Below are positions 266 to 30,618 of a stretch of 32,420 nt of DNA, in pieces. The position numbers and the translations under genes are program-made. The stretch lies in the sequence record SRR20825006_2474; one strand, written 5' to 3'. The notes below the pieces were generated by a model. That model had not been told where the DNA came from. It did no database searches and was given only the letters and a program-made list of their open reading frames with translations. Every line of letters begins with the position of its first letter. Within the stretch, counting starts at the first letter, position 1.

Positions 266-276
266 CAATTTAATAT
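257..276 (+). repeat. Left-end imperfect inverted repeat (partner 32260..32279)
   Basis: TCCTTATAGCAATTTAATAT versus the reverse complement of 32260..32279, AGTTTATACGAATATGAAAT: 12/20 identical by hand. AT-rich, so modest support. Confidence 0.5.
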
Positions 277-333
277 TCAATATTTGTTGCTGAGTCATCC
301 AGATGGTGTTGTTATACGGATACACGTATAGCA

Positions 334-3628: not shown

Positions 3629-6309
3629 CGCAATCAGCCGAATTTCTAAAGGCTCTGGATTCATGTGAAGCGCAGGCGCGGTTGGATGTCCTACCCGGTT
3701 CCACTAATAATCACTTTAAGAGTATGACTTGGCAGTTTGAAAATCAGCGTGGGGATCTTATCACCATCGATTTCAATGATCTGTTGGATATGGTTGAGAA
3801 GCATCCCGATTGGCTACTGGTCCATACGGTCGATTGGATAGTTCTCACCAAGCTAATATGGCTCTCGCTCGCCTCAACGGCGACTCCTAGTCAATATGTG
3901 TCTAGAGCTTCCGGTTTAAAACTCTTTTGGGCGGCAATGGCACATTATAATTTGACGCAATTGACTCGAGATAACTGTAAGTTAGTTCTCGAGTTTCTGT
4001 TGATGCATAGTTGGCGTCAAGGTGCTGTAAGTCGGAATCTATCTATTAGATCAAGTTCTAGTTTTAGTACTCAAATACCACTCAAAACATGGAGACTGGC
4101 GCTTTCGGATCTTGGCTTGGACTGGTTTGCACGTGAAGTGACGGATTCGTTTATAAATAAACAGGTAAAAGCACTAGTTCCCGAATTAACGGACGATGAG
4201 CTAACCTGCAAAGATTGGTTCGAAGGAGGAAGTTACGATCTATTAACCCTGGATCATGGTCGTTATTACGTGGAACATTGTCTGGCCTTTTTTGGAAAAC
4301 AATATCCCCTGGCGCTAGCGCTGGCTTCGACGTTTCGGGCGATTCCGGCTTTGGCGGCTTCGTGCGGCTACGAACGCAGAACTGTAAGTCAACTTGTACC
4401 TCTCTGTTTACAGGGGTATACAGCTGATGAAATAAACCATCGGTGGCCTTCGTGGTCAGCTACCACGGTACAAAATGTCCATGGCAAGGTGACCCATCAC
4501 TTTAAAGAAGCATACCAACAGGCGCGATTTGAAGCAGCGTTTCTGCAAGACGAGACAGTAACATCCTTTGTTAGAGCTTGTGGACTTCAGCCCTCATCAG
4601 AAAATACAGACCGGATGCGGGTCATTCTCTGGGACTGGCTGCGTCGAAAAGACAAAGCGGAAACCCAACGCCTTTTGAATGAAGGGCAGGAAGTGCCGTG
4701 GGCAGTTTTCGAGCAGCAATTTGGTGTTTTTAAAAGACATAGTGCTCAGCAGAATTGCCTAGTCCCCTCAGGCGAGGATTATAAGGCGTTCGGGCTGGTT
4801 GAAGGTGGTATAAGGAGTTCGTCTTCATCATATCCTCGACTCTTGATAAATCTTGTTGCCAAAGCCGGGCTGACCACTATGGTGGCCTTGACTGGTTGGC
4901 GACGAAGCGAGTTTGGCTTTCCACGTTCGGCGATCATGCGGACGAGGAATGACGACAAATTAGATCAACATGCCTTTCCCTGGCGCTACCAAGTGGACTG
5001 GTATGTATATAAAACAAGTGGAAAGGTCCGCCAGCTAAGAGAGATTTCCTTCAGCAGTTTCTTGATTGCGGAGCAGATGCAGTCATTGCTCGACGCTACT
5101 GATGAGCAGCCTTGTTTGTATGCTGTTAAAAAAAATAAAAAGGATCCTTCAGATTCGATGCAGCAAGTGCAGCACGGAGTTCGGGCCCTATGGGGCCACT
5201 TCGTCAATCATTATTCAGGCTTTAAGCAGCTTGATGATTGGACAACATGGCAAGCGTTGCAAGCGACCCGTGATTCTGGCAACCCGTTTACGAAGGTAGA
5301 GCAACAAGAGTTTGAGCGCTTATTGGCGCAGCGCTCTGCTGAGCAATGGTCGGACCTATCGATAAACACCAATTTGAAAGAGGCGTGGCGACGTGCGCGA
5401 AGGGAGTGGCCCCGTCTAGAGTTGTTTTTTAGTGGATCAACCACTAAAGACAAAAAGGATTGGTTGGTCCAGTACTGCGACGGCACGCTGAGACCTGACT
5501 GGCAGGCTTTGCTGGACGCGTACTTGCCAGATAATACAAAAGAATGGATTTTTTCGTTACCGAAGGAAGAATTAAGATCTAATCGAGTACCCAGAACAGT
5601 AATGAATAACTTAATAGAAGGAACCCTTTATCCAAGCCCACATGCCTTTCGTCATATGTGGGCCGAAGCGGTCTATCGACGTTTTGATGGCGATGCCGGC
5701 TGGATGATACGCAGTCAGTTCAAGCACATATCGCGGGCCATGTGGCTGGCCTACGTCCGTGATAAGGATAACCGGCTTGGCCACGAAAAAGCCAAAACTC
5801 AGGTCATTAGTTCGCTGGTTCACAACTATCTCAGGCATCAGGGTGAGGGTTATGCGGGTCAATTGCACACCTGGCTCCGAAGATTATTCAAAATAACCTC
5901 TGTGTTGTCACCCGAGGAACAAGAAAAGCTGGCCAATCACTTGGCTACCGTTGAAATTGAAAACATCAAGTCGAACCCCTGGGGATACTGTCTGCTCAAA
6001 CGCAGAACCCGAAGCAAGGCGAAATGCGCGGAAATGGGCGAACCCATGCGCCACAACGCATCGCCTGACCTCTGCCTGGGCTGCATCCACAACCTCATGC
6101 AGACAGAGAATGTCGAGTGGGCCTTGTTCCATGTAGCAACCCATGTAGAGGCGTTACGGAACCCCGTCGTGCCGGCTATTTTCAAAGCCTCATCCTACGA
6201 TCTGGTTAAAAATGTGACGCGACACGTTCGCACCCTAAATCCTCAGCATGAAGCACTCGCCGAGTTGCAAGGGGTTTTGGACGATTACAAAACATCAAGG
6301 GCTGCCTAA
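3625..6309 (+). CDS. Large tyrosine recombinase (GinC/IntB-like)
   Basis: 894 aa, ATGA overlap with the previous gene. Motifs TGWRRSE, YKTSG, PHAFRH, QFKH..WLAY, and a Cys-rich C-terminus (GYC..C..LCLGC). Confidence 0.82.
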   Translation: MTQSAEFLKALDSCEAQARLDVLPGSTNNHFKSMTWQFENQRGDLITIDFNDLLDMVEKHPDWLLVHTVDWIVLTKLIWLSLASTATPSQYVSRASGLKLFWAAMAHYNLTQLTRDNCKLVLEFLLMHSWRQGAVSRNLSIRSSSSFSTQIPLKTWRLALSDLGLDWFAREVTDSFINKQVKALVPELTDDELTCKDWFEGGSYDLLTLDHGRYYVEHCLAFFGKQYPLALALASTFRAIPALAASCGYERRTVSQLVPLCLQGYTADEINHRWPSWSATTVQNVHGKVTHHFKEAYQQARFEAAFLQDETVTSFVRACGLQPSSENTDRMRVILWDWLRRKDKAETQRLLNEGQEVPWAVFEQQFGVFKRHSAQQNCLVPSGEDYKAFGLVEGGIRSSSSSYPRLLINLVAKAGLTTMVALTGWRRSEFGFPRSAIMRTRNDDKLDQHAFPWRYQVDWYVYKTSGKVRQLREISFSSFLIAEQMQSLLDATDEQPCLYAVKKNKKDPSDSMQQVQHGVRALWGHFVNHYSGFKQLDDWTTWQALQATRDSGNPFTKVEQQEFERLLAQRSAEQWSDLSINTNLKEAWRRARREWPRLELFFSGSTTKDKKDWLVQYCDGTLRPDWQALLDAYLPDNTKEWIFSLPKEELRSNRVPRTVMNNLIEGTLYPSPHAFRHMWAEAVYRRFDGDAGWMIRSQFKHISRAMWLAYVRDKDNRLGHEKAKTQVISSLVHNYLRHQGEGYAGQLHTWLRRLFKITSVLSPEEQEKLANHLATVEIENIKSNPWGYCLLKRRTRSKAKCAEMGEPMRHNASPDLCLGCIHNLMQTENVEWALFHVATHVEALRNPVVPAIFKASSYDLVKNVTRHVRTLNPQHEALAELQGVLDDYKTSRAA

Positions 6310-6824
6310 TGGTCATGGACTACCTGAAAAAGCGGGTCGAGGCAGCGGCTAGTCAACAAGAGGCAGAACGCCCTAGCTGGGTATCCAACAAAAATGCCAG
6401 CTTGAAAGCATGGCAGTATGTCGAGGAACTCAAAAAAGAGAAGTCGCTTTATATAAAACGTCACCACAAGATCACCGATTATCTGGTTCAGAAAACCTAT
6501 CAAATAAAGGGCTCGGACATCGCCAGCGCTTTGGATATAAATCGCGCTTCACTGATGAATACCTCCAGCTATTCACCGCATTTCAAAAAATATCTGGATA
6601 GTGTTAACAAGGAGTTAGCGGCAGCTAAGGAGGCCAGGCTGCTTAAGGCTCAAAAGTCTCCTTCTCGCGGTTCCATCCGAAACAGCAAAGATGAACTGGT
6701 TCGGTCCAATACTGATTTGAAAAAAAGAGTATCTGAACTAGAGGCTCAAAAGACTGAAGAGCTGGTTCGCTATGCCTTTGATCAGCTGCCGCTGCCAGTC
6801 AAAAAGAAACTTGGGATCGACTGA
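6309..6824 (+). CDS. Small basic coiled-coil recombination accessory protein (GinD/Srap-like)
   Basis: 171 aa, TAATG coupling to the previous gene. HTH-like SDIASALDINRASL and a C-terminal coiled coil. Fourth gene of the module. Confidence 0.7.
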   Translation: MVMDYLKKRVEAAASQQEAERPSWVSNKNASLKAWQYVEELKKEKSLYIKRHHKITDYLVQKTYQIKGSDIASALDINRASLMNTSSYSPHFKKYLDSVNKELAAAKEARLLKAQKSPSRGSIRNSKDELVRSNTDLKKRVSELEAQKTEELVRYAFDQLPLPVKKKLGID

Positions 6825-6860
6825 CCAACGCAACCCAAAAGCTTGGCAAAATATCGGTCG

Positions 6861-6924
6861 TTTTCTGGACGCTTCCACTAATCCTCGAAAAACCACCATT
6901 TCCATATTGTTTTGCGTCCAAAAA
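6861..6924. promoter_or_regulatory. Candidate resolvase binding (res) region
   Basis: Inverted pair TTTCTGGACGC (6862..6872) and GCGTCCAAAAA (6914..6924), 10/11 match, directly upstream of the resolvase gene. Confidence 0.35.
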
Positions 6925-6962
6925 TCACGTACAAAAAACTATGGCTAGAAAAGGTGCGTTTA

Positions 6963-7526
6963 ATGATCATAGGTTATGCACGTGTCAGCACTCAGGATCA
7001 AAATCCGGAATTCCAGGTAGATGCCCTGGAGAATGCAGGGTGCGAACAGATCTTCCAGGAGAAATATACTGGGAAGTTCCGAGAACGACCTGAACTGTCG
7101 CAGTGCCTTCGCACCCTCCGCAAGGGCGACGTTCTAGTCGTCTGGAAACTGGACCGGCTGGCTCGTTCACTAAAAGACTTAGTTGAAATCGTCCAAGATC
7201 TCAATGAGAAAGAGATCGGTTTCAAATCACTGACAGAATCGATCGACACTACCACCTCTGGCGGCCGGCTTGTCTTTCATATATTCGGCGCCCTCGCTGA
7301 GTTTGAGCATGACCTGATTCGTGAGCGAACAAAGGCGGGGCTCCAGGCAGCCAGGGCACGGGGACGCAAAGGAGGCCGTAAACCTGCTATGTCTGACTCG
7401 GACATCAGAAAAGCGGCAGCGATGTTGTCAGACTCTCAGATCACAAAGACCGAAGTTGCCGCGCACTTTGGTGTGACCCGAACAACACTGAATGCTTCTC
7501 TTAAAAGAATTAAATTGGCAGCCTAA
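6963..7526 (+). CDS. Serine recombinase (resolvase/invertase family)
   Basis: MIIGYARVST (catalytic Ser), VWKLDRLARS, ERTKAGLQAARARGRKGGR and a C-terminal HTH. Start set at the ATG at 6963. Confidence 0.95.
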   Translation: MIIGYARVSTQDQNPEFQVDALENAGCEQIFQEKYTGKFRERPELSQCLRTLRKGDVLVVWKLDRLARSLKDLVEIVQDLNEKEIGFKSLTESIDTTTSGGRLVFHIFGALAEFEHDLIRERTKAGLQAARARGRKGGRKPAMSDSDIRKAAAMLSDSQITKTEVAAHFGVTRTTLNASLKRIKLAA

Positions 7527-7582
7527 GTTGAAACTTGTTGCCTCGAATTTGCCAGCAACCGTATTCGACCCGGGAGGGTTTT

Positions 7583-10258
7583 GTGGCTCTTAATCATGGA
7601 AAGCTAATGGAGGATCTGGAGCGCCTATCGTCGCAACCGGACGCCGATCAGTTCATCTTCGACTTTCTCCGTGCTTACCAAACCCCGAACTCCACACTGA
7701 CCCGCTTGATGCAGGGCGGAGATCGCAATGTTGGCGAGCGCTCTGGGGATGTCGGGGTCCGGCAGAAACTGTATTTCCGCCCGGTTACTGGAGATCCGTA
7801 CACGGCGGCAGAGGGGCTGCTGGACGAAGAGGTGATTTCCCGGCACAAGATCCGCTTTGTGATCGTCACCGACTTTAAAGACCTGGTGGCTTATGATTTA
7901 GGGGTTGGTGACCGGATGGAGTGCGCCTTCCGTGATCTTTCCCTGCAGTACAGTTTCTTCCTGCCCCTGGCGGGCTACGAAAAAGCCGTTGAATACTCGG
8001 ACTCGCCCGCCGACGTTAAGGCCGCCGAGAAGATGGGTCGCTTGTGCGACCTATTACGACAGAGTAATGACATGGATGCCCCGGGCCGGGTTCATGAACT
8101 TAATGTTTTCCTCACCCGGCTGTTGTTCTGCCTGTTTGCTGAAGATACCGGCATTTTTGAACAAAACCAGTTCACATCTGCCGTGCAGGGAAATACACAC
8201 AAGGATGGCAGCGACGCCCACCAAGTGTTACGTCAAATTTTCCTGGCGATGAACACAGAGCGCAGGCCGCGGGATCTCCCCGCACACCTGGCTGCCTTCC
8301 CCTATGTGAATGGTGGGCTGTTCCGTGATGACCTTCCGGTGCCTGTCATGGGGCCCCGAGCTCGCCGCATGCTGCTGGATGCTGGCCAACTGGACTGGTC
8401 TACGATCAACCCCGATATTTTCGGCTCAATGTTTCAGTCCGTAATTGATCCTGAGCAGAGGGGTAGCCTTGGTCAGCACTACACTTCCTTGTCGAACATC
8501 ATGAAGGTGCTTCGTCCGCTGTTTCTCGACAAGTTGGAGGATGGGCTGGAGAAAGCGAAGGGAAAGCCAAAGCAGCTGGAAAAGTTGTTACAGCGTGTTC
8601 GAGACATCAAAGTTTTTGACCCCGCCTGTGGTAGTGGCAATTTCCTCATCATTGCCTTCAAAGAGCTGCGAAGGCTTGAGATGCAAGTGCTGGAAGCTCT
8701 CAACAGCAGCACAAAGCAGAATGTGCTGGTCATGCCTGGGGTACAGATCCAGAATTTTTACGGTATAGAAACTGACGACTTTGCCCATGAAATAGCGTTG
8801 CTCGCCTTGTGGTTAGCTGAGCATCAAATGAACATGGCGTTCCTGGATAAATTCGGGCATTACGAACCGACCCTGCCACTGAAGGCCAGTGGCAATATCG
8901 TTTTGGGCGATGCACTGAGTTTGGACTGGACTCAGGTATGCCCCAGACGCCCGAATGAGGAGGTGTATGTTTGCGGAAATCCTCCTTTCAATGGAGCTAA
9001 CTCCCGAACGCCTGAGCAGAATGAGTCGATGACCCGTGTATTCAGGGGCTTCAGAACCTACAAATATCTGGATTTTGTTGCTTGCTGGTTCTGGAAAGGC
9101 GCTCAGTACATAGCCGGCACCCAGGCGGAAATGGGGCTTGTGGCGACCAACTCCATTTGCCAGGGGATGCAGACCTCAATGTTATGGCCGCCCATCCTGG
9201 AAAAAGGTCTTTCGATTCACTTTGCTTACCAGGGCTTCCAGTGGAAGAACAGCGCTCGGGATAATGCCGGGGTTCATGTGGCGATAATTGGGCTCAGTAA
9301 CAACGCAATTACCAAGAGCCTGTATAAAAAGGTGGGCGGCGACTGGCACAAAGAGACAGTTTCAAATATCAGCCCCTATTTGCTGGAAGGGGCTGACACT
9401 GTAGTTAAAGATCGTTCATCACCTCTTATAAAATCAACCAGAATGGAGCATGGCAACAAGCCCGTCGACGGCGGGAATCTTCTGCTAACACCAAAAGAAA
9501 AAGAAACGCTGCTCGACATAGAGCCTACTGCCGAAAAATGGTTAAAGAGGCTTTTAGGTGCTGATGAATTTATAAAGGGCAAAGAGCGGTGGTGTCTGTG
9601 GCTCAAAGATGCCTCAGAGGCCGATATAGCCTCAATGCCGGCAGTCCGATCAAGGGTCGATCGGGTCAGAGAGGCTCGCTTAGCTAGCAGAGATGCAGGA
9701 GCGAGACAGTTGGCCTTGAGACCACATCAATTTAGGGATCTGAATAATCCTGAGAGCTTTATTCTTGTGCCTTGCGTCACATCGGAACGCAGAGAGTATG
9801 CGCCTGTTGGGTTCTTTAGCCGCGACTATATTCCCACGAATCTTGTCAATATCGTGGCAGGTGGAACCTTATACGATTTTGGCGTGCTCTCAACCCGCAT
9901 CCACATGGATTGGCTACACTTGGTCGGAGGGCGGCTGGAGAGTCGTTTTCGCTACAGCGCGAAACTCGTTTATAACACCTTCCCTTGGCCGGATTGCACT
10001 GCCAAACAACGCGCTGAAATCGAAACCCTAGCCGATGAAGTTCTGCTTGCCCGGGAGGACACCTTCGATTGGACCATGGCCGAAATGTACGATCCGGACA
10101 AGATGCCCTCTGCGCTTCGGGACGCACACAGGAATTTGGATGAGGCAATAGAGCGGTTATACCGCCGCACGCCTTTCAGGGATCAGGCCGAACGCCAGGA
10201 GTTCCTACTGGCGCGGTATGAAAAACTCATCAAGCAGGAAGCAGGAGTCGCAGTATGA
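7583..10258 (+). CDS. MmeI-like N6-adenine DNA methyltransferase with target-recognition domain (YeeA/DnmA-like)
   Basis: FDPACGSGNF (motif I), GNPPF (motif IV), GQHYTS, and an MmeI-type C-terminus (RYSAKLVYNTFPWP, MAEMYDPDKMP). GTG start follows GGGAGG. Confidence 0.9.
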   Translation: MALNHGKLMEDLERLSSQPDADQFIFDFLRAYQTPNSTLTRLMQGGDRNVGERSGDVGVRQKLYFRPVTGDPYTAAEGLLDEEVISRHKIRFVIVTDFKDLVAYDLGVGDRMECAFRDLSLQYSFFLPLAGYEKAVEYSDSPADVKAAEKMGRLCDLLRQSNDMDAPGRVHELNVFLTRLLFCLFAEDTGIFEQNQFTSAVQGNTHKDGSDAHQVLRQIFLAMNTERRPRDLPAHLAAFPYVNGGLFRDDLPVPVMGPRARRMLLDAGQLDWSTINPDIFGSMFQSVIDPEQRGSLGQHYTSLSNIMKVLRPLFLDKLEDGLEKAKGKPKQLEKLLQRVRDIKVFDPACGSGNFLIIAFKELRRLEMQVLEALNSSTKQNVLVMPGVQIQNFYGIETDDFAHEIALLALWLAEHQMNMAFLDKFGHYEPTLPLKASGNIVLGDALSLDWTQVCPRRPNEEVYVCGNPPFNGANSRTPEQNESMTRVFRGFRTYKYLDFVACWFWKGAQYIAGTQAEMGLVATNSICQGMQTSMLWPPILEKGLSIHFAYQGFQWKNSARDNAGVHVAIIGLSNNAITKSLYKKVGGDWHKETVSNISPYLLEGADTVVKDRSSPLIKSTRMEHGNKPVDGGNLLLTPKEKETLLDIEPTAEKWLKRLLGADEFIKGKERWCLWLKDASEADIASMPAVRSRVDRVREARLASRDAGARQLALRPHQFRDLNNPESFILVPCVTSERREYAPVGFFSRDYIPTNLVNIVAGGTLYDFGVLSTRIHMDWLHLVGGRLESRFRYSAKLVYNTFPWPDCTAKQRAEIETLADEVLLAREDTFDWTMAEMYDPDKMPSALRDAHRNLDEAIERLYRRTPFRDQAERQEFLLARYEKLIKQEAGVAV

Positions 10259-12333
10259 CCACGGACCTGATCCGCGTGGAGTACGCGCAAAACGGAAAAA
10301 GCAAAAAGACCAATGAACTGGGTATGCGCGAGATGCAGGCCAGAGCCTATGAGGCGCGAGACCAACAATACCTGTTACTCAAAGCGCCGCCGGCGTCCGG
10401 CAAATCCCGAGCTTTGATGTTCCTGTCGCTGGACAAGCTGATCAACCAGGGCATCCGCAAAGCGATCGTGGCGGTACCGGAGACTTCTATTGGGGCCTCA
10501 TTCAGCGACACTCCGCTGTCTGAGCATGGATTTTATGCCGATTGGGTCGTGCGGCCCGAGCACAATCTTTGCACTCCTGGAAGCGAAGGTAGTGATGGCA
10601 AGATCGACGCCTTCCGCCGATTCATGCACCGCGACTCCACGGACATCGCGGATCGCGTGCTTATCTGCACTCATGCCACCTTGAGATTTGCCTTCGAGAA
10701 GCTCGATACGTCCGAGTTCGACGACACGCTATTGGCGATTGATGAATTCCATCACGCCTCGGCCGATCGCGATAATCGCCTGGGCAATCTTCTGGACCGG
10801 CTGATGAAGCAATCCAGTGCCCATGTAGTGGCCATGACCGGCTCCTATTTCCGTGGGGATACGGTACCGATCCTGTTGCCCGAGGATGAGGAAAAATTCA
10901 GCCGCATCACATACACCTATTACGAGCAGCTCAACGGTTACGAACATCTGCGATCACTGGGTATTGGTTATCACTTCTACACCGGCCGCTACATGAGTGC
11001 GATCAAGGAAGTGTTGGACCCGGACAAGAAGACGATCATCCATATTCCCAATGTAAACTCGCGGGAATCGACCAAGGACAAGTTCACGGAAGTAGATCAG
11101 ATTGTGGACGCCTTAGGCACGGTCGAAAAAACTGAGCCCGATACCGGCATTCTTGTCGTCCGTGTCGAAGGCGGGAAGCAACTGCGGGTGGCCAACCTTG
11201 TCGACGATACGGTTGAGCGCCCCAAGGTGATGGCCTATTTAAGACAGGCCGAGGGTTACGACGACATCGATATCATCATTGCCCTGGGCATGGCCAAGGA
11301 GGGTTTTGACTGGCCATGGTGCGAGCACGTACTGACGATCGGCTACCGTAATTCAATGACTGAAGTAGTGCAGATTATTGGCCGGGCCACCCGTGACGCT
11401 CCTGGCAAAAGCCACGCGCAGTTTACCAACCTGATTGCCCAGCCCAATGCTGAGGACGAAGACGTAAAGTTCGCGGTTAACAACATGCTCAAGGCGATTA
11501 CCGTCTCTCTATTGATGGAACAGGTGATGGCACCGAACTTCAACTTCCGGCCCCGGGATCTTGGCGGTGAGGCCGTAGTGGACGGGCCCGGTTCGATTGA
11601 AATAAATGGAATAGGCGGGAACAAGCCTTCCCCGCAGGTCCAGCATGCCCTGGATAACAGCAGTGACATCGTGGCCGCGTTCATCCAACAGCCTGAGGCG
11701 GCCGCCGCGATAACTGGCACCAATGACCCGGAGGTGATGACCCAGGCAGTCCTGACCCGGGTAATCCAGGAGCGCTGCCCCCAGTTAAGTTCAGAGGAAG
11801 TCGAGAATGTCCGCATGGGGATTGCGACGCAAATGGCGCTGAGTGCCAGTGGCGGGCTGTTTACTGAAGATACCTTGCCTGAAGATGCCGAATTCATTAC
11901 GCCGGAGCCCACGCCCGAAGGCGAAGATGAGCCGCTGGCCGCGCCCCGTATCATTCCTGGCAAGGAGAGCCCCGGTGGAGAAGGTACCGGCGAAGACAAA
12001 CGCTTTCTTCAATTGGCCGGAAAGTTCGTGAACATTGAAGACTTGAACATGGACATGATCGATCAGATCAACCCGTTCCAGGGTGCCTACGAAATCCTGA
12101 GCAAGTCTGTTACTGCCGGGGTACTCAAGACCATCCAGGATGAGATTCATGGGAACCGGGTCGAGATGACCGAAGAGGAAGCGACGATTCTGTGGCCCAA
12201 GATCAAACGCTTCGTTAGAGAGCATGGCCGCAATCCCGCGGCGTCCTCCCCCGACCCTGTGGAGAAGCGTTATGCAGAGTGTCTCCTCTGGCTAAAACAG
12301 CAAAAGCGCCAACGCTCACAACAGGCTGGCTAA
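10255..12333 (+). CDS. SF2 DEAD/DEAH-type helicase (YeeB-like)
   Basis: APPASGKS, DEFHH, MTGS, EGFDWP, QIIGRATR. ATGA overlap with the methyltransferase. Confidence 0.9.
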   Translation: MTTDLIRVEYAQNGKSKKTNELGMREMQARAYEARDQQYLLLKAPPASGKSRALMFLSLDKLINQGIRKAIVAVPETSIGASFSDTPLSEHGFYADWVVRPEHNLCTPGSEGSDGKIDAFRRFMHRDSTDIADRVLICTHATLRFAFEKLDTSEFDDTLLAIDEFHHASADRDNRLGNLLDRLMKQSSAHVVAMTGSYFRGDTVPILLPEDEEKFSRITYTYYEQLNGYEHLRSLGIGYHFYTGRYMSAIKEVLDPDKKTIIHIPNVNSRESTKDKFTEVDQIVDALGTVEKTEPDTGILVVRVEGGKQLRVANLVDDTVERPKVMAYLRQAEGYDDIDIIIALGMAKEGFDWPWCEHVLTIGYRNSMTEVVQIIGRATRDAPGKSHAQFTNLIAQPNAEDEDVKFAVNNMLKAITVSLLMEQVMAPNFNFRPRDLGGEAVVDGPGSIEINGIGGNKPSPQVQHALDNSSDIVAAFIQQPEAAAAITGTNDPEVMTQAVLTRVIQERCPQLSSEEVENVRMGIATQMALSASGGLFTEDTLPEDAEFITPEPTPEGEDEPLAAPRIIPGKESPGGEGTGEDKRFLQLAGKFVNIEDLNMDMIDQINPFQGAYEILSKSVTAGVLKTIQDEIHGNRVEMTEEEATILWPKIKRFVREHGRNPAASSPDPVEKRYAECLLWLKQQKRQRSQQAG

Positions 12334-12335
12334 TC

Positions 12336-13589
12336 ATGGTGCCGAGAGAATTCTTCAACTTAGATGAGATATTCCAGGACGATGATCAGGGATTACTCGA
12401 CAGCCGGGGCAACAACCAGGCTCCAAGCCAGATTTATCGTCTTCGTGAGGGTTTTGCCGAGATTAACGGCTTTGTGGATGAGCACGACAAGGTGCCATCT
12501 GACGAGGGGGATCAGTTGGAGCGACGCCTGGCTCGGCGTCTTGCGGTCATTCGTCGGGATCGTAGTAAGGCACAAGTTCTTGCTCCGGATGATCGACACG
12601 GCTTGTTAGGCAGCGCGTCAGAGCCCGACTCCGTGCCGGCGGGTGATGATTTCGATGCTGTGTCTGAGAATGTCACCTCACTCGACGATATCCTCGCAGA
12701 CGCCGGTGGCTTGCTGGATAGCGAGGCCCAAGAGCTGTTTGAGCAACGCCACATTCAATTCGGTTCTAAAAAGAATACACCCGATGAGATCGCTCAGCGC
12801 ACACCGTGTCGGGACTTTGACCGTTTCGAGGGACTATTCAACGGGGCGAAATCTGAGATTCGAGAGGGTCACAGTGAGACGGTGCGTTTTGCCAAGGGCG
12901 CACAGATCCAAGAGGGAGATTTCTTCATCTTGGATGGCATCATGTGCCTGGTCGATAGGATTGGTGAGAAGAACGAGGGCGTTGGCCATTCCAGACACAA
13001 TCCTCGTATCCGGGTCGTCTTTGATAATGAAACCGAATCCAACTTGCTGCTGCATTCGTTCGCCCGGGCCCTCTATAAAGATCCCAATGGTCGGCGCGTT
13101 TTAATGGACCCTGATCGAGTGTTTGAAAAGATGCAGGGGTTATCGCATCACGATCGACGTAAAGGCGTGCTTTATATCCTTTCATCGAAGAGTGCGAACC
13201 CCGAGTTGGCTGCCATGAGAGATCTCTACAAGATCGGTTACACCGAGGAAGCGCTTGGGAAACGTATTGCCGGTGCTCAGCGGTCGACCACATACCTTGA
13301 AGCTCCTGTGACAGTGGAAGCCACCTACGACTGCTATGGTGTAAACCCACGGGCGGTAGAACGCCTAGTCCATGCAATGCTTTCCTCGCAGAAGTTGAAT
13401 GTGACGCTCACGGATCATCAGGGGCGGCGGTATAGACCTAGAGAATGGTTTTCTGTGGACTTGGAAACAGCGAAAAAGGTTGTGGAGCGGATTGCCGATG
13501 GGACGATCAGCAACTACCGCATTGATGGTGTCAGCGGCAGACTTGTGGCCAAAAGCAGGCGTTATGGCGGAGGCTCAGATAATAAATGA
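12336..13589 (+). CDS. GIY-YIG (T5orf172-like) nuclease-domain protein (YeeC-like)
   Basis: C-terminal GVLYIL...LYKIGYT...RI...ERLVH...REWF pattern. ATG is 2 nt after the helicase stop. Confidence 0.85.
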   Translation: MVPREFFNLDEIFQDDDQGLLDSRGNNQAPSQIYRLREGFAEINGFVDEHDKVPSDEGDQLERRLARRLAVIRRDRSKAQVLAPDDRHGLLGSASEPDSVPAGDDFDAVSENVTSLDDILADAGGLLDSEAQELFEQRHIQFGSKKNTPDEIAQRTPCRDFDRFEGLFNGAKSEIREGHSETVRFAKGAQIQEGDFFILDGIMCLVDRIGEKNEGVGHSRHNPRIRVVFDNETESNLLLHSFARALYKDPNGRRVLMDPDRVFEKMQGLSHHDRRKGVLYILSSKSANPELAAMRDLYKIGYTEEALGKRIAGAQRSTTYLEAPVTVEATYDCYGVNPRAVERLVHAMLSSQKLNVTLTDHQGRRYRPREWFSVDLETAKKVVERIADGTISNYRIDGVSGRLVAKSRRYGGGSDNK

Positions 13590-13841
13590 GATGAACCTTG
13601 TGCCCTTGCAGAAATTGATATCTCTCGAGACAAGGGCACGAGAGATCATCACCTTCAGACTGGATTTTAAATATGCATCTAAACAATAACCAAAATTTGA
13701 TATCTCCGCTCCAGAGTTTAAGAAAGCGAAGGATAGTTTTGCCTCCGAGAATCTGATTTAGCTAGTCTCGACAATTGAATGTACGGTGACATATTTGTCG
13801 CCGAGAAAAGCACCAAAAATCAATGAAATTAAGGGGATATC

Positions 13842-16823
13842 ATGCTAAATCGCGGATCGGAGTGGCGAAGGTGGGAGCCACATATCCATGCGCCCGGCAC
13901 AGTCATGAACAATCAGTTCAGTGGATCGAATGCATGGGACGATTACCTCACAGCACTTGAACAGGCAGCTCCGGTCATTGAGGCGATCGCGGTCACCGAC
14001 TATTACATAACTGATACCTACCAAAAGATCTTGGAATATCGAGATGCAGGAAGACTTCCGAGCGCCACGCTGATTTTTCCGAATGTCGAGCTGAGGCTCG
14101 ATGTTGCGACTGCGAAGGGGGGCTTCGTCAATTTACATCTTTTTGTAAGCCCAGAAGATCCGCAACATCTTGATGAGCTGCAACGGATACTATCGCGCTT
14201 ACAATTTAACGTGATGAAGGATCGATTTGATTGCACACGCGCCGAACTGATCAGACTAGGCAAGAATGCAGACCCAAACATTACTGATGATGGTGCTGCG
14301 CTTGCTTACGGTGCAAGCCAATTCAAAGTCAACTTTCAGCAGTTGCGTGAAGTGTATGCGGAGAGCAGCTGGGCGCAACAAAATATATTGATTGGTGTGG
14401 CAGGCGGTGCGAGCGATGGCACCTCGGGCGTCCGAGAAGCGGCCGACCAGACTATCCGGCGCGAGATCGAAGGTTTTGCACATATAATATTCGCTAGCAG
14501 CGAAGCTCAGCGGGAATTCTGGCTGGGCCTCAAACCTTCCATGTCTGCCGATGAAGTTCGCAAGGTCTATGGTGGTCTCAAACCCTGCCTTCACGGAAGC
14601 GATGCGCATGACCTTAAGAGTGTCGCTTCGCCGTTTGGAGATCGCTTTTCTTGGATTAAAGGTGGACTCGAATTCGACTCTTTGCGCCAAGCATGTATTG
14701 ATCCAGCGGGCCGTGCGCATGTAGGGAGAGAACCGCCGGCGTCTGCAACACCGTCGCAGGTGATTTCCGGTGTCGAGATTCTCGATGCGTCATGGATAAA
14801 GACTCCGACCATACCGCTCAATCCGGGGTTGGTCGCGATTATCGGTGCCCGCGGATCTGGCAAGACGGCGCTGGCAGACATGATAGCAGCAGGCTGTGAT
14901 TCAATCCCAGACGAGGCCTGGAATGCAGATGAGTGGGCAAATCCATCTTTTCTAGTTCGGGCACGTCCGCTTGTCGGAGGAGCAAAGGTCAAGGTCAATT
15001 GGGCTGCTGGACAACCAGAAACACGGACGCTCGACGGTTCGGACGCAAACGGGCCATTCACCTATGAGCGCGTGCGATATTTGTCTCAGCAGTTTGTCGA
15101 AGAACTCTGCTCCTCAGACGGACTCACAGACGGACTGCTCCGTGAAATCGAACGCGTAATTTTCGAGGCGCATCCCGAAGATACTCGGGACGGTGCATTG
15201 AATTTTTCGGAGCTGCTGGAACAGCGTGCATCCCGACATCGCCTCGCTCGCGCCAGAGAGGCTGAAGCAGTCGCCCAGATTTCTGATCGAATCAATACAG
15301 AGCTAGAGAAAAACAAACTCGTCGCCAGCTACGAGGCGGATGTGACGAAGAAAAGAAAGCTGGTTGATGCCTATACGGCCGACCGTGCCAAGCTGGTGTC
15401 GAAAGGTAGTGAGAAGAGAGCTCTGAGACATACGGAATTAGCTGGCGCCGCTAACGATGTCCGAGCCAAACTTCGTCAGCTCACGGGGCAGCGGCAGGCG
15501 TTTCTGGCTATGCAGGATGAAGTTAAAGATATGCGCCGCAACCAAGCGCCCGAAGCGCTCCGACAAGCTCAGGCGCGCTATGACCAGAGCGGAATGTCGG
15601 AAGACCAATGGGCTGCGTTTTTGATCGACTATAAAGGGCCGGTTGATGACGACCTCACTGGTTATGTGAGATATGTCGATCGTGAGATCGCTAAACTCAA
15701 GGGAACAGCTCCGCCACCAGGCGACGCGAACACTGCCTATTTTCCAGACGATACTGATCTCGGCACACTTACACAGGCCTTGCTGGACGCGGAGATGGCG
15801 CGGTTGGAGAAACTGGTCAGTGCCGATAAGGATGCGCAACTCCGTTATGCCAAGCTTTCCAAAAACATCGCGACCGAAACCTCGGCACTACAAACGTTGA
15901 CGCATAAGTTAAGCGATGCGAGAGGAGCCAAGGAGCGCGTTCGCCAATTACAGGCAGATCGTGAGGCGGCCTATGGTAGGACCATCGATGCGCTCGTTGC
16001 TGAGCAATCGGTTCTGGAGGAGCTTTACGCTCCATTAATGGCACGGCTTGAGGCGTCCTCGGGAACATTGAAAAAACTCTCGTTTTCCGTCTCGCGACAT
16101 GCGGATGTGGAGGGATGGGCAGAGGCGGCTGAAGATGGACTTATTGACCTGAGAAAGGCCGGCGCCTTCCGTGGGAAAGGGACGCTTCAGCAAAAGGCTA
16201 ATGAGGTGCTGAAAGCTGCATGGGAAACCGGGGATTCTGGTGCCGTCATTGGAGCTGTGGAAAAGTTTCGCAGGCTATACCAGGACGATTTGCTGGAACA
16301 CTCCCCTGTCGCTAGGGCAGATCAGGCAGAGTTTCGTGCATGGTTGAAACGCTTTGCTCAGTGGCTTTTCAGCACGGACCATATCGAGATTCAATATGGT
16401 ATCGACTACGATGGTGTCGATATTCGAAAGCTATCCCCTGGCACTCGGGGAATAGTCCTTTTGCTTCTCTATCTCGGTTTAGATGATAAAGACGACCGGC
16501 CACTTCTTATTGACCAGCCTGAAGAGAATTTGGATCCGAAATCAGTCTTTGATGAATTGGTACAGTTGTTTATTGAAGCTAAATCGCACCGGCAGGTTAT
16601 CATCGTCACACACAACGCGAACCTCGTTATCAATACCGACGCTGACCAGATTATTATCGCAGAGGCAGGGCCACATCCCCATGAGGCGTTGCCGCCGATT
16701 ACCTACCTGTCTGGTGGTCTCGAGAACTCCGAAATCAGGAAAACGGTATGCGATATCCTGGAGGGTGGCGAGGCGGCGTTCCAAGAGCGTGCAAGGCGAC
16801 TGCGTGTGAGGTTGTATCGATGA
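13842..16823 (+). CDS. PHP phosphoesterase fused to an SMC-like ABC ATPase (TrlF/Ppl-like, likely anti-phage)
   Basis: PHP motifs RGSEWRRWEPHIH, TDYY, PNVE, HGSDAH. ATPase motifs GARGSGKT, long coiled coil, LSPGTRG, LLIDQPEENLD, VTHNAN. Confidence 0.88.
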   Translation: MLNRGSEWRRWEPHIHAPGTVMNNQFSGSNAWDDYLTALEQAAPVIEAIAVTDYYITDTYQKILEYRDAGRLPSATLIFPNVELRLDVATAKGGFVNLHLFVSPEDPQHLDELQRILSRLQFNVMKDRFDCTRAELIRLGKNADPNITDDGAALAYGASQFKVNFQQLREVYAESSWAQQNILIGVAGGASDGTSGVREAADQTIRREIEGFAHIIFASSEAQREFWLGLKPSMSADEVRKVYGGLKPCLHGSDAHDLKSVASPFGDRFSWIKGGLEFDSLRQACIDPAGRAHVGREPPASATPSQVISGVEILDASWIKTPTIPLNPGLVAIIGARGSGKTALADMIAAGCDSIPDEAWNADEWANPSFLVRARPLVGGAKVKVNWAAGQPETRTLDGSDANGPFTYERVRYLSQQFVEELCSSDGLTDGLLREIERVIFEAHPEDTRDGALNFSELLEQRASRHRLARAREAEAVAQISDRINTELEKNKLVASYEADVTKKRKLVDAYTADRAKLVSKGSEKRALRHTELAGAANDVRAKLRQLTGQRQAFLAMQDEVKDMRRNQAPEALRQAQARYDQSGMSEDQWAAFLIDYKGPVDDDLTGYVRYVDREIAKLKGTAPPPGDANTAYFPDDTDLGTLTQALLDAEMARLEKLVSADKDAQLRYAKLSKNIATETSALQTLTHKLSDARGAKERVRQLQADREAAYGRTIDALVAEQSVLEELYAPLMARLEASSGTLKKLSFSVSRHADVEGWAEAAEDGLIDLRKAGAFRGKGTLQQKANEVLKAAWETGDSGAVIGAVEKFRRLYQDDLLEHSPVARADQAEFRAWLKRFAQWLFSTDHIEIQYGIDYDGVDIRKLSPGTRGIVLLLLYLGLDDKDDRPLLIDQPEENLDPKSVFDELVQLFIEAKSHRQVIIVTHNANLVINTDADQIIIAEAGPHPHEALPPITYLSGGLENSEIRKTVCDILEGGEAAFQERARRLRVRLYR

Positions 16824-16924
16824 TCTGTGGTCGTCCAGAGTAATATTGATTAACGTCATCATAACAATTAGCTACTGCGCATAATCTGGGGTTATGGTGA
16901 ACCGACTTTGAGGAAATGGGAACT

Positions 16925-16994
16925 AGGCGTCTCCCTGGCGCGTCACACCACTGGGCAGGTGTCGCGTTTGCCTGGCATCCGTGCCGGCGCTGAG
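16925..16994. repeat. 70-bp direct repeat, copy 1
   Basis: 63/70 identical and ungapped against 26201..26270 (hand alignment). Confidence 0.9.
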
Positions 16995-17165
16995 TTTCGG
17001 TCCTATTGACTGAAATCCCGGACAAATAATACCACTCGAGAAACCTTAAGCTGTGCGAGATCTCGCATCGGCGTTTGAGAAGTTGCTTTCTAAAGGGGAG
17101 TGCGCGGACAAAATGAGAGGTGGTTTGCACACTGGTGTCGATGGTTTGCACATCGCTGACTCAGG

Positions 17166-17353: not shown

Positions 17354-17536
17354 CTAGGAAAACTCGCCACATTCGATTTTCCTGAGAACCCCCGTAACCT
17401 CTCGACGACCTTCGGACGTCTCGCATAGTTCAATAGGTCGCCGATGGCCAAGTGCGGCAACAGGACCGTTTAGCCAGTCACAAGCTAGCTGGCGAGATTC
17501 AAAGACCTGCGAGGCGTACTCGATTAATTCGTCCAT
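17354..17536 (-). CDS. Xre/MbcA/ParS antitoxin C-terminal domain protein (DUF2384-like), orphan
   Basis: ASQVFESRQLACDWLNGPVAALGHRRPIELCETSEGRREVTGVLRKIECG fits the A..VF....A..WL..P..ALG...P family pattern. No N-terminal HTH and no RES toxin nearby. Confidence 0.8.
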   Translation of the reverse strand: MDELIEYASQVFESRQLACDWLNGPVAALGHRRPIELCETSEGRREVTGVLRKIECGEFS

Positions 17537-17736
17537 ATTCTTGGGGGCTCTTGGACCATGGATTAACCATACAGTATAGGGCCGGAAGTCTTTCTTACCC
17601 AAGTCATGCTGAGTTGAGGTGGCCTTGGTCTTGCCCCTGGCCTGGCTGTCCATGTAAGGGGCTAGTCAGGCCCGGGAATTGTTGCCTTAGGACTGGGAAG
17701 CTGCTGGTGGCCGCCCAAAATGTTTTCTTTTAAACA

Positions 17737-26438: not shown

Positions 26439-27158
26439 GTGAAGTATTTCCAGCATTCTCTGTTGGCTGTAATGCTGCTTATCGCGTCCGGAGTTGCCAG
26501 TGCAGCCGTGGTCAAGAAGACGTCGTCTGGCATTTGTCATCCACCCGCAAGCCCTTATTACGAACGAACCCAGGATTTTGAGCCTTTTGACTCCGTTGAC
26601 GCTTGCGTAACAAGTGGCGGACGCTTACCAAAGACATTGGTGCAAAACCAATCAACTCAGCCGACGGAGTCCAGCTCAACGTCCTACGCGAGATCAGCAT
26701 TTGGCAATGGGTGGGATGACGCAGATGGCGATTGCCAGAACAGTCGGGCCGAGGCACTAATCGAAACTTCCAGCACTACGGTGCGATTCGCTACAGACAA
26801 AGAGTGTCGAGTCGTCACCGGTCGCTGGATAAGTACCTTCACGGGCAACGTCGTCCAGAACAGTAGCGAGATCGACATTGACCACGTGGTCCCTCTTAAT
26901 TGGGCCTGGAAGCGTGGCGCACAGCTTTGGCCTCAAGCGAAAAGAGAACGGTTTGCAAACGATATGGTCAATCTCTGGCCTGTCGAGCTAAGCCTAAATA
27001 GAAGTAAGGGCGCCCAGGGCCCGGACGAGTGGTTGCCGCCATCTGGAAAGTGCGGATACGTGGCGCGATTTCGCCGAATCGTAAAACAATATGATCTTCA
27101 GCTGTCTCCGGCGGAAGCCAGTTGGACCAAGTCTTTCCTCAATAGGTGTCGCACCTGA
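26439..27158 (+). CDS. Secreted HNH-family nuclease (DUF1524-like) with a small Cys-containing N-terminal domain
   Basis: Signal peptide ending ASA-A, VKKTSSGICH...C..SGGRLPK domain, Ser/Thr linker, then IDIDHVVPL...FAND..NLWPV...NRSKG...WLP. Confidence 0.82.
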   Translation: MKYFQHSLLAVMLLIASGVASAAVVKKTSSGICHPPASPYYERTQDFEPFDSVDACVTSGGRLPKTLVQNQSTQPTESSSTSYARSAFGNGWDDADGDCQNSRAEALIETSSTTVRFATDKECRVVTGRWISTFTGNVVQNSSEIDIDHVVPLNWAWKRGAQLWPQAKRERFANDMVNLWPVELSLNRSKGAQGPDEWLPPSGKCGYVARFRRIVKQYDLQLSPAEASWTKSFLNRCRT

Positions 27159-27206
27159 CCAATTGCTATACTAAGGGTGTAATGATTCGCTCTCAAAAGA
27201 GGCGGT

Positions 27207-27449
27207 ATGAAAAAGAAAAGGTTCACTGAAGAAGAGCTGCTTGACGGCCTGGATCCCTATGCGGCCCATGCGGATGAGCTTGCCGAGCCGCAGGGTAATG
27301 AGCTGACACCTCTGGAACGTTTAAAAGGTTCCGTCCTTCGCTACGAAAGGCCAACTGATCCCGTGTGGGATGAGTGGTTTGAGGCTGAGGGCGTAACGGA
27401 GGATTTTATGGAAAATCGAGATCAGCCGGATAACAAAGAGCAAAAATGA
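27207..27449 (+). CDS. Acidic 80-aa antitoxin-like protein with a VapB-like C-terminal tail and no DNA-binding domain
   Basis: GAGG RBS. WDEWFEAEGVTEDFMENRDQP resembles the enteric VapB C-terminus as I recall it. Confidence 0.7.
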   Translation: MKKKRFTEEELLDGLDPYAAHADELAEPQGNELTPLERLKGSVLRYERPTDPVWDEWFEAEGVTEDFMENRDQPDNKEQK

Positions 27450-27780
27450 TAACCCGTTACATTCCTCTCAGTATGAAAAGTGCCATACCGCTAATATTTT
27501 CAGATCGTTAAAAATACCAGCCTCTGGCTTTTCAGGCCTGCACGGCTCCAAAAACTGACTAATTGCATCAAAGTGGAGCCGACCGTGAAGTTTATTGGAA
27601 CAACTTGCTTGTTTTAGAGAGAAATTGTCCCCAAATTTGTGGGCAAACGCCATTAAACTGGGCTCCACAAGCGTGCATAGACGAACCATCAAGTTCTGAG
27701 GATTCGTCCACTCATTGTCTGAGAAAAGTCCGCGGGAATATTCCGATAATGGAACTCAGAAAAAATTTTCGGGGAAGCCG

Positions 27781-28560
27781 TCACAGCACCCTATCCCCGA
27801 ATAAAGACAGAACTTCTTTCCAGTAATGATTGCTCATGGAGAGTTCAGTTGTTTCCTTCTGCCATGTTTGGTCAGGCCTTGCTGTCCGGGTATCCGTCCC
27901 ATTGACACTGAAGTCCCACTCGGATGCGTCACTGTCTTCGGGTACAACTGCTCGCTCCATAGTGCCATCCGCGTTTTGCCTTGAAGCCCTGGGTGAAAAT
28001 GAAACCACGTTTTGCTCTGGGAGATCGTCGCCAATTCGACGCGCAAACTCTGTCAGGCTGGGTTCCGCGAGTACGTAGAGCCAGCCTCCTATGTCAGAAG
28101 GTTCGCCTGCCTGGCAACGGAGGATTCTGCCGAGAACCTGCCGGAAATGGAGCTCTGTTCGAATTCTACTAAGGTGACAGCATACTTGGAGTCGAGGAAT
28201 GTCGGTTCCTTCACTGATCATCCCTACAGAAATGATCCATCGATCAGAGGAGGTTCTGAAGTTATTGATGACCTCATGAGCTTCCGGAGTCCGGCTCGTC
28301 ACAACAACGGGTTTCTCACCCAAGGCTGAAAACCTGGTCGCTATTTGTTCTGCGTGAACCACGGTGGCTGCTACGACCAACCCGGCCGCAGTAGGAACGC
28401 GCCGCCGAATCTTTGATAGCCTTTTTGATGCCTCAGAAAGCGTATGGTCGATCACCTCATCCCGGAAAAGAAAGTCAGGATAAGTAATATGACCATGCTT
28501 GATCGTTTCTCGGATACTGAAATAAGTTTTGAGGCCGAGCTTTCGGATACGTAGAATTTG
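27781..28560 (-). pseudogene. 5'-truncated SF2 helicase (C-terminal RecA domain only)
   Basis: WIISVGMISEGTDIPRL and FRQVLGRILR (motifs V and VI). The frame is open upstream only to an in-frame TGA at 28561..28563. No Walker A or DExH motif. Confidence 0.75.
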
Positions 28561-29152: not shown

Positions 29153-29562
29153 GGTGACGCGTCGAGCAAAATAGCTAAGCTCAAAGAACAAAAACCTGGC
29201 CCACAATCTTTGAGCTTAAGCTATAAGCTTGCCGGGACGGTGGTTGTTATGACGCAACAATAATCCTGTACTTTGATATCGGTCCACCCAAATAAGGACG
29301 TTCAGAACAACCTTGGCTTCGTTTTCTTGGGTCGAACAGGAACTCGACATTCTCTGGATTGCAGGGATTAAGGTCCACACTATATGTTCTTCGCTGTTGC
29401 GATATACGGACCTGAGCCAGCAGAAGCGGCTCGACAAATATCAGGTTGATCCTGGCGTCCAAATTAGCGCCACGCTAGGATGGCGGCAGTTCAGCGTGGG
29501 TTGACTGTTGATATAAAGAGACTGTGCTTAGAAATAATAATCAACAAATACAAGGAGTTTTA

Positions 29563-30618
29563 ATGTCTACCCTGAATCTGATTGTCCATGAGGTTCAAAA
29601 GGAGGAGGCTGATCGTAAAGACGCGGACGCGTCGAGAGCGAGAATAACCTTTCGAGATGACGAGAACCGAATTGATGAGCACTCAGAGAACCTTAGCAAC
29701 CAGCTGCGAGAGCTGTTCAGAAAAACAGGATTGAGCACAGGTGAGTTTAGTGCTGCGGATGAAGCTGACGGCGAAGCGCCAGAGTTCAAACAGCTATTAG
29801 AGCGCTCATTCGACGGGCGTCAATTTGCAGACTTTGTGAAATTCTCGAAGGATGCCACCTATTTATTCAAGAAAGAGCTCGACCGATCCCCACCTTCAAA
29901 GGGCGGCTATCTTTGGTTTAACCATTATGTTTACGGAGGCGAGCACTTCCTCTCAGTTGTGCTGCTTCGCAAAAAAAAGGGCCTGCGCTTAGGAAAGGAT
30001 CTTAGTCTTGCAGAAATCGAGCAGCTAGATCTTGACAAACTTCACATGGCAGCTCGTTTGAATCTCAGCGCCTGGTTGGAGGGGAAATCCACTCGGTATA
30101 TTTCATTCCGTGTGGGGCAGGGTGCAACTGAAGTGACTAATTATTTCTCACTCTTCGTTGGATGTGCTGAGTATCGAAGAGACAAGGCCGATACGGCCAA
30201 TATGATACATGCGCTAAGGGCATATTGTAGCTTTCATAATTGGAATGAGAATAAGATCGAGTCTGTAAAGCAAAGCCTCTACGATAAATGTGTGGAGTGG
30301 AGGCGGGATGAGGTGCCCGTTATGCTTGACGCAATATCAGAATACCTTGATGCGCTTCATGTGACACCGGATGGAGAGAAGGGAATTTTTTTAGAGAAAG
30401 CGCAGCGTGATTTTGAATTAAGCAACCATGTTCCTATAAACAGTCAGGAGCTAAATAAACTTCGGAGATATTCTGGCCGAAATAGTAATATTTCGATAAG
30501 TTTCAAGAGTGGTGCGCTGAACGTAACAGTATTTTACGACGCTAAATCGGAGGAGCTTCGTGTAACTGATGTTCCCGATGAACTCAAGCTGCAGTTAGAT
30601 AAGAAGAAAGATGGATAA
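29563..30618 (+). CDS. NdpA/YejK-family nucleoid-associated protein (divergent, island-type)
   Basis: LIVHEVQK, KGGYLWFNHY, LDLDKLHMAARLNLSAW, YISF, NYFSLFVGC. AAGGAG RBS. Confidence 0.85.
   Translation: MSTLNLIVHEVQKEEADRKDADASRARITFRDDENRIDEHSENLSNQLRELFRKTGLSTGEFSAADEADGEAPEFKQLLERSFDGRQFADFVKFSKDATYLFKKELDRSPPSKGGYLWFNHYVYGGEHFLSVVLLRKKKGLRLGKDLSLAEIEQLDLDKLHMAARLNLSAWLEGKSTRYISFRVGQGATEVTNYFSLFVGCAEYRRDKADTANMIHALRAYCSFHNWNENKIESVKQSLYDKCVEWRRDEVPVMLDAISEYLDALHVTPDGEKGIFLEKAQRDFELSNHVPINSQELNKLRRYSGRNSNISISFKSGALNVTVFYDAKSEELRVTDVPDELKLQLDKKKDG

Follow-up and report, generated by a model that had tools for sequence, protein, structure and literature searches.

A tail-only antitoxin-like protein of Marinobacter mobile elements combining sequences from three antitoxin families

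Mobile elements of Marinobacter carry a small, conserved gene whose 80-aa product resembles the toxin-binding tails of three different type II antitoxin families, MazE, Phd/YefM and AbrB-type VapB, with no recognizable DNA-binding domain and no PIN or PemK toxin gene found beside it. The protein therefore probably disarms toxins encoded by other elements, although this function is inferred from sequence alone. The gene was found in a DNA stretch of 32,420 nucleotides (record SRR20825006_2474, hereafter the window). A first-pass annotation had described it, from the letters alone, as an acidic small ORF lacking a DNA-binding domain and an adjacent toxin, with successive segments resembling the tails of MazE/PemI-type antitoxins, of Phd-type antitoxins paired with PIN toxins and of enteric VapB. 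This observation was confirmed, with the one correction that the second and third segments are not separate blocks. Its interpretation, a multivalent antitoxin neutralizing several type II toxins in trans as an anti-addiction or anti-defence device, was partly supported, the anatomy being borne out while the function remains an inference. The features relevant to this analysis are the following:

27207..27449 (+), gene for the 80-aa tail-only composite antitoxin-like protein, stop codon included
27198..27202 (+), Shine-Dalgarno-like AGAGG, 4 nt before the ATG
27222..27305 (+), segment 1 (residues 6-33), MazE-type tail, predicted to bind PemK/MazF
27306..27386 (+), segment 2 (residues 34-60), tail of Phd/YefM-type antitoxins paired with PIN toxins
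27351..27440 (+), segment 3 (residues 49-78), tail of AbrB-type (enteric-type) VapB, predicted to bind VapC and overlapping segment 2
26439..27158 (+), upstream neighbour, a 239-aa protein with a signal-peptide-like N-terminus and a GmrSD_C/DUF1524 nuclease-like domain (PF07510, E 1.1e-11)
27781..28455 (-), downstream neighbour, a truncated helicase gene (PF00271, E 3e-5)
17354..17653 (-), separate orphan MbcA/ParS-type toxin-binding domain ORF (99 aa)

A conserved gene under purifying selection

The ORF starts at ATG and encodes exactly the sequence quoted in the first-pass annotation, an acidic protein (pI 4.40, with 22 D/E against 11 K/R). A word-indexed search of 5.8 billion proteins returned 198 homologs. 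Of the 120 listed, most are 72-90 aa long (a few up to 127) and 62-95% identical, and nearly all those named are from Marinobacter, with a few from Halomonas, Saccharospirillum and Balneolaceae, annotated as "hypothetical" or "antitoxin VapB". A family alignment of 46 sequences (A1) is conserved along its whole length, with a mean column identity of 76%. For 32 unique coding sequences, dN/dS was 0.115 overall and 0.145, 0.067 and 0.160 for segments 1 to 3, these ratios being approximate since dS is high. Among 121 Marinobacter genomes, 44 have a match at E<=0.01 and 36 a match at E<=4e-16, with up to 7 matches in one genome. Contigs from RNA libraries of three studies cover the ORF, but this is only a weak hint of transcription, since contigs show neither strand nor level and DNA carry-over is not excluded.

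These data leave little room for the view that the gene is a decayed remnant of fused or eroded toxin-antitoxin (TA) loci with no function of its own. Several hits in other genomes carry internal stop codons, and the locus is a mosaic, the downstream helicase gene being truncated (224 aa here against 466 aa in two other family loci, L001 and L002). Yet each segment has a dN/dS below 0.17, length and sequence are conserved across the 198 homologs, and the gene is multi-copy in genomes and also found on plasmids, so that this reading is very unlikely and already close to refuted.

Three antitoxin tails in one polypeptide

That each segment should hit a distinct antitoxin family had been set beforehand as a test of the proposal, and in each case the family was found with the expected toxin as its neighbour. 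The three resemblances are more than chance. For segment 3, NCBIfam NF040493 (VapB) matches residues 48-78 at E 2.4e-7, but only on model positions 39-69 of 73 and at 30.8 bits, below the curated cut-off of 60 bits. A profile of A1 hit nine PDB "Antitoxin VapB" sequences at E 1.9e-6 to 3.3e-4, always on the tail (9h6a-d including 9h6d_B, 6sd6_A, 3tnd_B, 6ifm and two 6ifc chains). The two 6ifc chains are only 22 and 29 residues long, showing that a tail alone has been crystallized under this name. In Shigella, VapB residues 46-67 wrap around VapC, with Trp47, Trp50, Phe51 and Phe60 inserted into its hydrophobic groove and Arg64 and Gln66 entering the active site (PMC3384007). These align with W54, W57, F58, F67, R71 and Q73, and all six are present in the window protein. 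W54 is invariant in A1, and F58, F67, R71 and Q73 are at least 90% conserved, whereas position 57 is aromatic in most rows shown but not in all. In L001, L002 and the RNA-library contigs, W57C changes one aromatic anchor.

Segment 2 (match on residues about 30-60) was traced in G001, the complete Marinobacter genome of L001, whose copy is 96% identical to that of the window. There, a Phd/YefM-type antitoxin directly upstream of a PIN gene (locus L025) ends in a tail that BLASTP aligns to residues 24-57 at E 6e-9, and it is the only other hit of the A1 profile in this genome (E 6.2e-5, query positions 30-59). The L025 toxin matches PF01850 at E 5.2e-15. Similar antitoxins in loci L107 and L108 of Marinobacter, as well as in L019, each sit beside a PIN gene. 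The N-domains of the L025 and L019 antitoxins match PF02604 at E 2e-5 and 2.9e-6, just below the curated cut-off.

For segment 1, neither the whole protein against the NCBIfam MazE models nor the A1 profile against the PDB gave a MazE hit, and the link therefore rests on a genome survey. A profile of segment 1 alone (alignment A2), run over 400 sampled Gammaproteobacteria, matched 21 genomes besides G001 at E<1e-3, with per-genome E values of 1e-11 to 6e-4. Of the 20 loci read, leaving out one from an unpublished genome (L059), 17 have the motif at the C-terminus of an AbrB/MazE-type antitoxin next to a PemK-like ORF, the three exceptions being an orphan 69-aa ORF, a truncated antitoxin and one locus with no ORF hit. 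In one example (L042), the toxin matches PF02452 at E 2.7e-22, and the antitoxin matches MazE in NCBIfam (NF007312, E 1.1e-9) and in the PDB (1ub4, E 3.7e-8; 1ub4/1mvf, E about 3e-8). The MazE/PemI resemblance claimed in the first-pass annotation is thus also borne out, with the refinement that the motif belongs to a MazE lineage distinct from the PemI-type tail (as in locus L036); its identification as a PemI tail proper was rejected because the two are separate motifs that co-occur in relatives P0199 and P0169.

The three donor families occur in the same genus. When partial A1 hits from the Marinobacter survey were read, 6 of 6 segment-3-only hits were AbrB-VapB plus PIN, 4 of 4 segment-1-only hits were MazE plus PemK (L103-L106), and 2 of 2 segment-2-only hits were Phd-type plus PIN, to which L025 is added; three further hits were fused forms without a toxin. 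Identity of the window protein to the nearest canonical tails is 16/28 for segment 1 (MazE of L103), 17/37 for segment 2 (L107) and 17/32 for segment 3. The matches of segments 2 and 3 overlap on about 11 residues (about 48-59), so that the two PIN-type tails are spliced in register rather than simply abutted, and the protein may not be truly trivalent at one time.

Absence of a DNA-binding domain and of a linked toxin

Pfam returned no family at E<=1, and the only NCBIfam hit was the VapB tail match. The protein thus lacks the AbrB/SpoVT-type domain of VapB, the N-terminal fold of Phd/YefM antitoxins (PF02604) and the AbrB-type swapped-hairpin domain of MazE, although it carries the C-terminal tail of each family. 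With no DNA-binding domain, no partner toxin (such as a vapC gene directly downstream) and sub-threshold scores, it does not qualify as a member of the VapB, Phd/YefM or MazE families, and its VapB-type tail is preceded by two tails of other families. AlphaFold2, run on the 46-sequence alignment, predicted a non-globular model (mean pLDDT 64, pTM 0.24) with only three short helices at residues 8-12, 35-42 and 52-60.

None of the window ORFs scanned with Pfam is a type II toxin, and phmmer searches with 11 PIN and 3 PemK reference proteins found none among the 633 stop-to-stop frames of at least 30 aa, other families (RelE/ParE, HigB, Doc, RES, HEPN) being screened only through the Pfam scans of the listed ORFs. 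Across 40 non-redundant family contexts, 0 had a PIN- or PemK-like ORF within 2 kb, with the limited sensitivity of phmmer and these 14 reference toxins. The first-pass annotation had further proposed that, together with an orphan MbcA domain, the element would carry up to four toxin-binding modules and no recognizable type II toxin. The MbcA-like ORF does match PF09722 (E 3.6e-11, residues 48-93), and the ORF downstream of it, 16735..17151 (-), has no Pfam family at E<=0.01. However, the MbcA-like ORF lies 9.5 kb away, beyond an alcohol-oxidation operon, and referring to a single element is loose wording on present evidence.

Motif shuffling and fusions among relatives

Homologs with other tail combinations do exist. 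A profile search of 1.8 billion representative proteins gave 131 hits at E<=1e-3, and scanning the 250 stored relatives and hits with per-segment profiles gave motif hits in 249, some of them fragments. The motif orders were 1-2-3 (136 proteins), 1-2 (45), 1 (26), 2-3 (10), 2 (9), 1-3 (8), 3 (7), 2-1 (4), 3-2 (3) and 1-3-2 (1). The permuted proteins were hits at E 7.5e-7 to 3.4e-4, with complete examples including P0221 (3-2) and P0231 (2-1). The latter is an NCBI-annotated protein of Vreelandella/Halomonas chromosomes, lying beside type I restriction-modification genes and a umuC-like gene. The motifs were also found fused to the Xre/MbcA/ParS toxin-binding domain (P0129, E 5.7e-10; P0144, E 6.7e-15), to nucleotidyltransferase domains (P0145 and P0222), to PemI-type tails (P0199, P0169, P0211, P0226 and P0240) and to a second AbrB-VapB tail type (P0163 and P0175), while some forms follow an N-terminal hydrophobic helix. 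This behaviour fits independent short binding motifs rather than one fold.

Proposed mode of action and comparison with known systems

The reading we favour, with moderate confidence, is that of a free-standing, largely unstructured "poly-tail" antitoxin, a string of short motifs that would fold on binding, each copied from the toxin-binding C-terminus of a different type II antitoxin family circulating in Marinobacter. In this view, segment 1 would wrap a PemK/MazF-type RNase, segment 2 would bind the PIN toxin of a Phd-type VapBC module, and segment 3 that of an AbrB-type VapBC module, its aromatic anchors sitting in the VapC groove and Arg71/Gln73 plugging the active site. With no DNA-binding domain and no toxin of its own, such a protein could neither autoregulate nor addict and would only soak up toxins made elsewhere. 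Carried on plasmids and integrase-linked islands (see below), it would protect the carrier element or its host cell against resident or competing TA modules, whether in post-segregational killing, TA-based exclusion or abortive defence. Our analyses establish the homology of each segment, the retention of the contact residues, purifying selection, the lack of a DNA-binding domain and of linked toxins, the mobile-element location, and motif shuffling and fusions in relatives, whereas binding, neutralization and the biological purpose (anti-addiction, displacement of competitors or escape from TA-based defence) are inferred.

Several points argue against this reading. Type II antitoxin-toxin pairs are usually insulated (PMC7354431), and tail identities of about 46-57% may not allow cross-neutralization. 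In three carrier genomes searched whole (G001-G003), only one canonical counterpart was found at E<=10, the Phd-type module of G001, suggesting that targets are often not in the same genome. The overlap of segments 2 and 3 may also make binding of the two PIN toxins mutually exclusive, and the W57C allele of L001 and L002 changes one aromatic anchor.

Two alternatives start from the same tails. As a modulator, the protein would compete with full-length antitoxins for their toxins and change toxin:antitoxin ratios on the operators, a ratio that controls TA transcription in VapBC systems (PMC3378870), thereby de-repressing or destabilizing resident TA modules and helping an incoming element to displace them. 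The missing DNA-binding domain and the homology of the tails to those of resident antitoxins in the genus are consistent with this possibility, but it requires the same toxin binding plus an additional, purely hypothetical step, and we regard it as unlikely. As a protease decoy, a string of antitoxin tails, which are also what Lon/ClpXP-type proteases degrade, would compete for the protease and stabilize resident antitoxins, blocking TA activation without touching the toxins. Blocking TA activation through the protease is a phage strategy, and the extended, non-globular prediction fits. Yet the residues conserved in segment 3 are exactly the toxin-contacting ones, fusions are to toxin-binding domains (PF09722) and no degron was identified, making this alternative also improbable.

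Conceptually, the protein is closest to orphan antitoxins and anti-addiction modules, such as the chromosomal CcdA of Erwinia, phage T4 Dmd and the orphan antitoxins on pVbh, in plasmid leading regions and in phages (PMC7354431; PMC11541004; PMC11825919), with which it shares antitoxin homology without a linked toxin on mobile DNA, and which are proposed to neutralize toxins encoded elsewhere. Those described are single antitoxins of one family, mostly with their full domain set, whereas this protein concatenates tails from three families with no DNA-binding domain and its relatives shuffle them. Literature searches, in which subscription journals and supplements were not covered, found no description of a composite, tail-only antitoxin or of shuffled tail arrays. 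A parallel also exists with the polyvalent proteins of phages and conjugative elements (PMC5512222), single polypeptides that combine in variable orders several modules aimed at different host or competitor systems. Polyvalent proteins have 2 to 15 domains, and no toxin-binding antitoxin tail is listed where that work mentions antitoxins, while here the modules are motifs of about 25 residues in an 80-aa protein, and the variable orders and fusions seen in relatives involve such short motifs rather than the globular domains that define that class.

TA modules stabilize plasmids and act as anti-phage and anti-plasmid barriers, and how incoming elements get past them is known for only a few single-target cases. 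If the favoured reading is correct, the protein would be a compact, multi-target countermeasure, and its relatives would show that antitoxin tails behave as portable short linear motifs. It would also offer a direct handle on cross-neutralization and insulation in TA biology, a reason why orphan antitoxin-like genes cluster on mobile DNA, and a natural template for peptides that bind PIN and MazF RNases. A broader and more tentative possibility is that mobile elements of marine Gammaproteobacteria (Marinobacter, Halomonas/Vreelandella, Vibrio) maintain a combinatorial repertoire of "beads-on-a-string" antitoxins, in which motifs lifted from MazE, PemI, Phd-VapB and two AbrB-VapB lineages are freely permuted and fused to MbcA/ParS and MntA-like modules. 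Each element would thereby carry a custom master key against the toxin pool of its community, a general counter-TA strategy of plasmids and islands evolving by motif shuffling and the short-linear-motif counterpart of polyvalent proteins.

Genomic neighbourhood and mobile context

The neighbours of the gene vary across the 40 contexts. They include the secreted-looking DUF1524/GmrSD_C protein, upstream and on the same strand as in the window (14 contexts), an MbcA/Xre-like gene (12), an MntA-like nucleotidyltransferase (10), an unknown 142-150-aa protein, fam62 (10), a 3'-5' exonuclease (10), a small unknown protein, fam28 (9), and integrases (4). Neighbouring genes are thus often other toxin-less antitoxin-like genes, and the one MntA-like copy read (locus L006) has a PemI-type N-terminal tail. 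For fam62, found downstream, Pfam gave only a weak sub-threshold DUF2469 hit, NCBIfam gave none, and the ESM Atlas gave unnamed clusters, with AbiEi-like clusters only at 0.87, which is no more than a lead.

The linkage to DUF1524 leaves room for a pairwise function, in which the small acidic protein would be an inhibitor or immunity protein keeping the nuclease-like protein inactive in the cytoplasm before export, as in nuclease-inhibitor pairs. In the window, the two genes are separated by 48 bp on the same strand, and no sigma-70-like promoter was found on the + strand between 25700 and 27900, so that they may be co-transcribed. However, 26 of 40 contexts lack the DUF1524 gene within 2 kb, and the 80-aa protein is equally conserved there. 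This reading, which we consider unlikely, does not explain why each segment matches a different antitoxin tail, why the VapC-contact residues are kept, or why relatives fuse the motifs to MbcA and MntA-like domains.

No relative was confirmed in IMG/VR (7 pattern matches, 0 confirmed), and tblastn gave no match in 50,697 phage records, providing no support for a phage origin. PADLOC returned no hit for the 80-aa or the DUF1524 proteins, and no tRNA gene that could mark an integration site was found in the window. In contrast, the family was found on three Marinobacter plasmids, one of which is typed conjugative (MOBH, MPF_F), while another places the gene beside HipBA and HigBA modules and an IS1595 transposase.

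Organization of the regions flanking the 80-aa gene

The part of the window at 334..16823 has the appearance of a defence island, whose components are given in the first entry below, followed by other features of the window:
334..16823, integrase, followed by two large unknown ORFs and a serine resolvase, and then by an MmeI-type restriction-methyltransferase, a helicase, a T5orf172 protein and a 993-aa ATPase with a Ppl-like PADLOC hit (E 4.3e-27)
17354..17653 (-), orphan MbcA/ParS C-terminal toxin-binding domain ORF (PF09722, E 3.6e-11)
27468..27692 (-), 74-aa ORF
27781..28455 (-), truncated helicase
29524..30618 (+), YejK-like nucleoid-associated protein (PF04245, E 2.3e-51)

No RES-like ORF was detected downstream of the orphan MbcA/ParS-type ORF, and its N-terminal half has no family. 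The YejK-like protein also displayed a weak hit to the NCBIfam "nucleoid-associated anti-phage protein" (E 4.6e-10, far below the cut-off), and is followed by a 428-aa ORF with no family.

Closer to the 80-aa gene, the 74-aa ORF repeats a stretch of the C-terminal part of the adjacent truncated helicase, both sharing a similar "...EPSL..FA...G..." segment. The two ORFs also occur in L001 and L002, two loci carrying the 80-aa gene in which the helicase is 466 aa long, and this arrangement looks like a duplicated or rearranged helicase 3' end. On the other side of the gene, RNA-library contigs from two runs (X14 and X18) break near position 27000, with loose ends unlike the window. This is in agreement with strains, such as those of L001 and L002, in which an integrase gene, and not the DUF1524 gene, lies upstream of the 80-aa gene.

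Other composite and tail-only proteins

Several loci carrying the 80-aa gene (L004, L005, L006, L008 and L012), as well as plasmid NZ_CP092285.1 (L068), revealed the recurrence near this gene of a 166-aa protein (e.g. L006:5280-5780, - strand) that joins a PemI-type tail at its N-terminus to an MntA-like nucleotidyltransferase (NF047752, E 5.8e-9; PF01909). This is another composite antitoxin-like gene with no toxin seen beside it. In the Marinobacter locus L110, a small ORF (141..410, +) consists of little more than a PemI-type tail and lies next to a 165-aa fusion of segment 1 (the MazE-type tail) with an MbcA-like region, thus representing another tail-only protein in this genus.

Downstream of the 80-aa gene in L004 and L005, two unknown small proteins recur (fam62, 142-150 aa; fam28, about 97 aa) and were also found fused to the tail motifs in relatives of the 80-aa protein, P0179 being fused with fam62 and P0131 with a fam28-like end. 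Neither has a Pfam or NCBIfam family, and the ESM Atlas provided only a weak AbiEi-like lead for fam62. Five other relatives (P0156, P0170, P0175, P0135 and P0239) carry a hydrophobic, transmembrane-like helix before the tail motifs, suggesting membrane-anchored versions.

In the Vreelandella/Halomonas loci L112, L113 and L115, the permuted variant, in which segment 2 (the Phd/YefM-type tail) precedes segment 1, lies between type I restriction-modification genes and a umuC-like polymerase gene. Downstream, a 218-242-aa protein appears to carry a PemI-type motif near its C-terminus, as seen in L112, and its N-terminal region recurs fused to segment 1 in another locus, L109. Finally, in Vibrio ostreicida, an 83-aa protein (L114:2971-3222, +) joins segment 1 to a stretch resembling the N-terminal extension of the HigA-like protein seen in locus L047, without the helix-turn-helix part, which is a possible further motif type.
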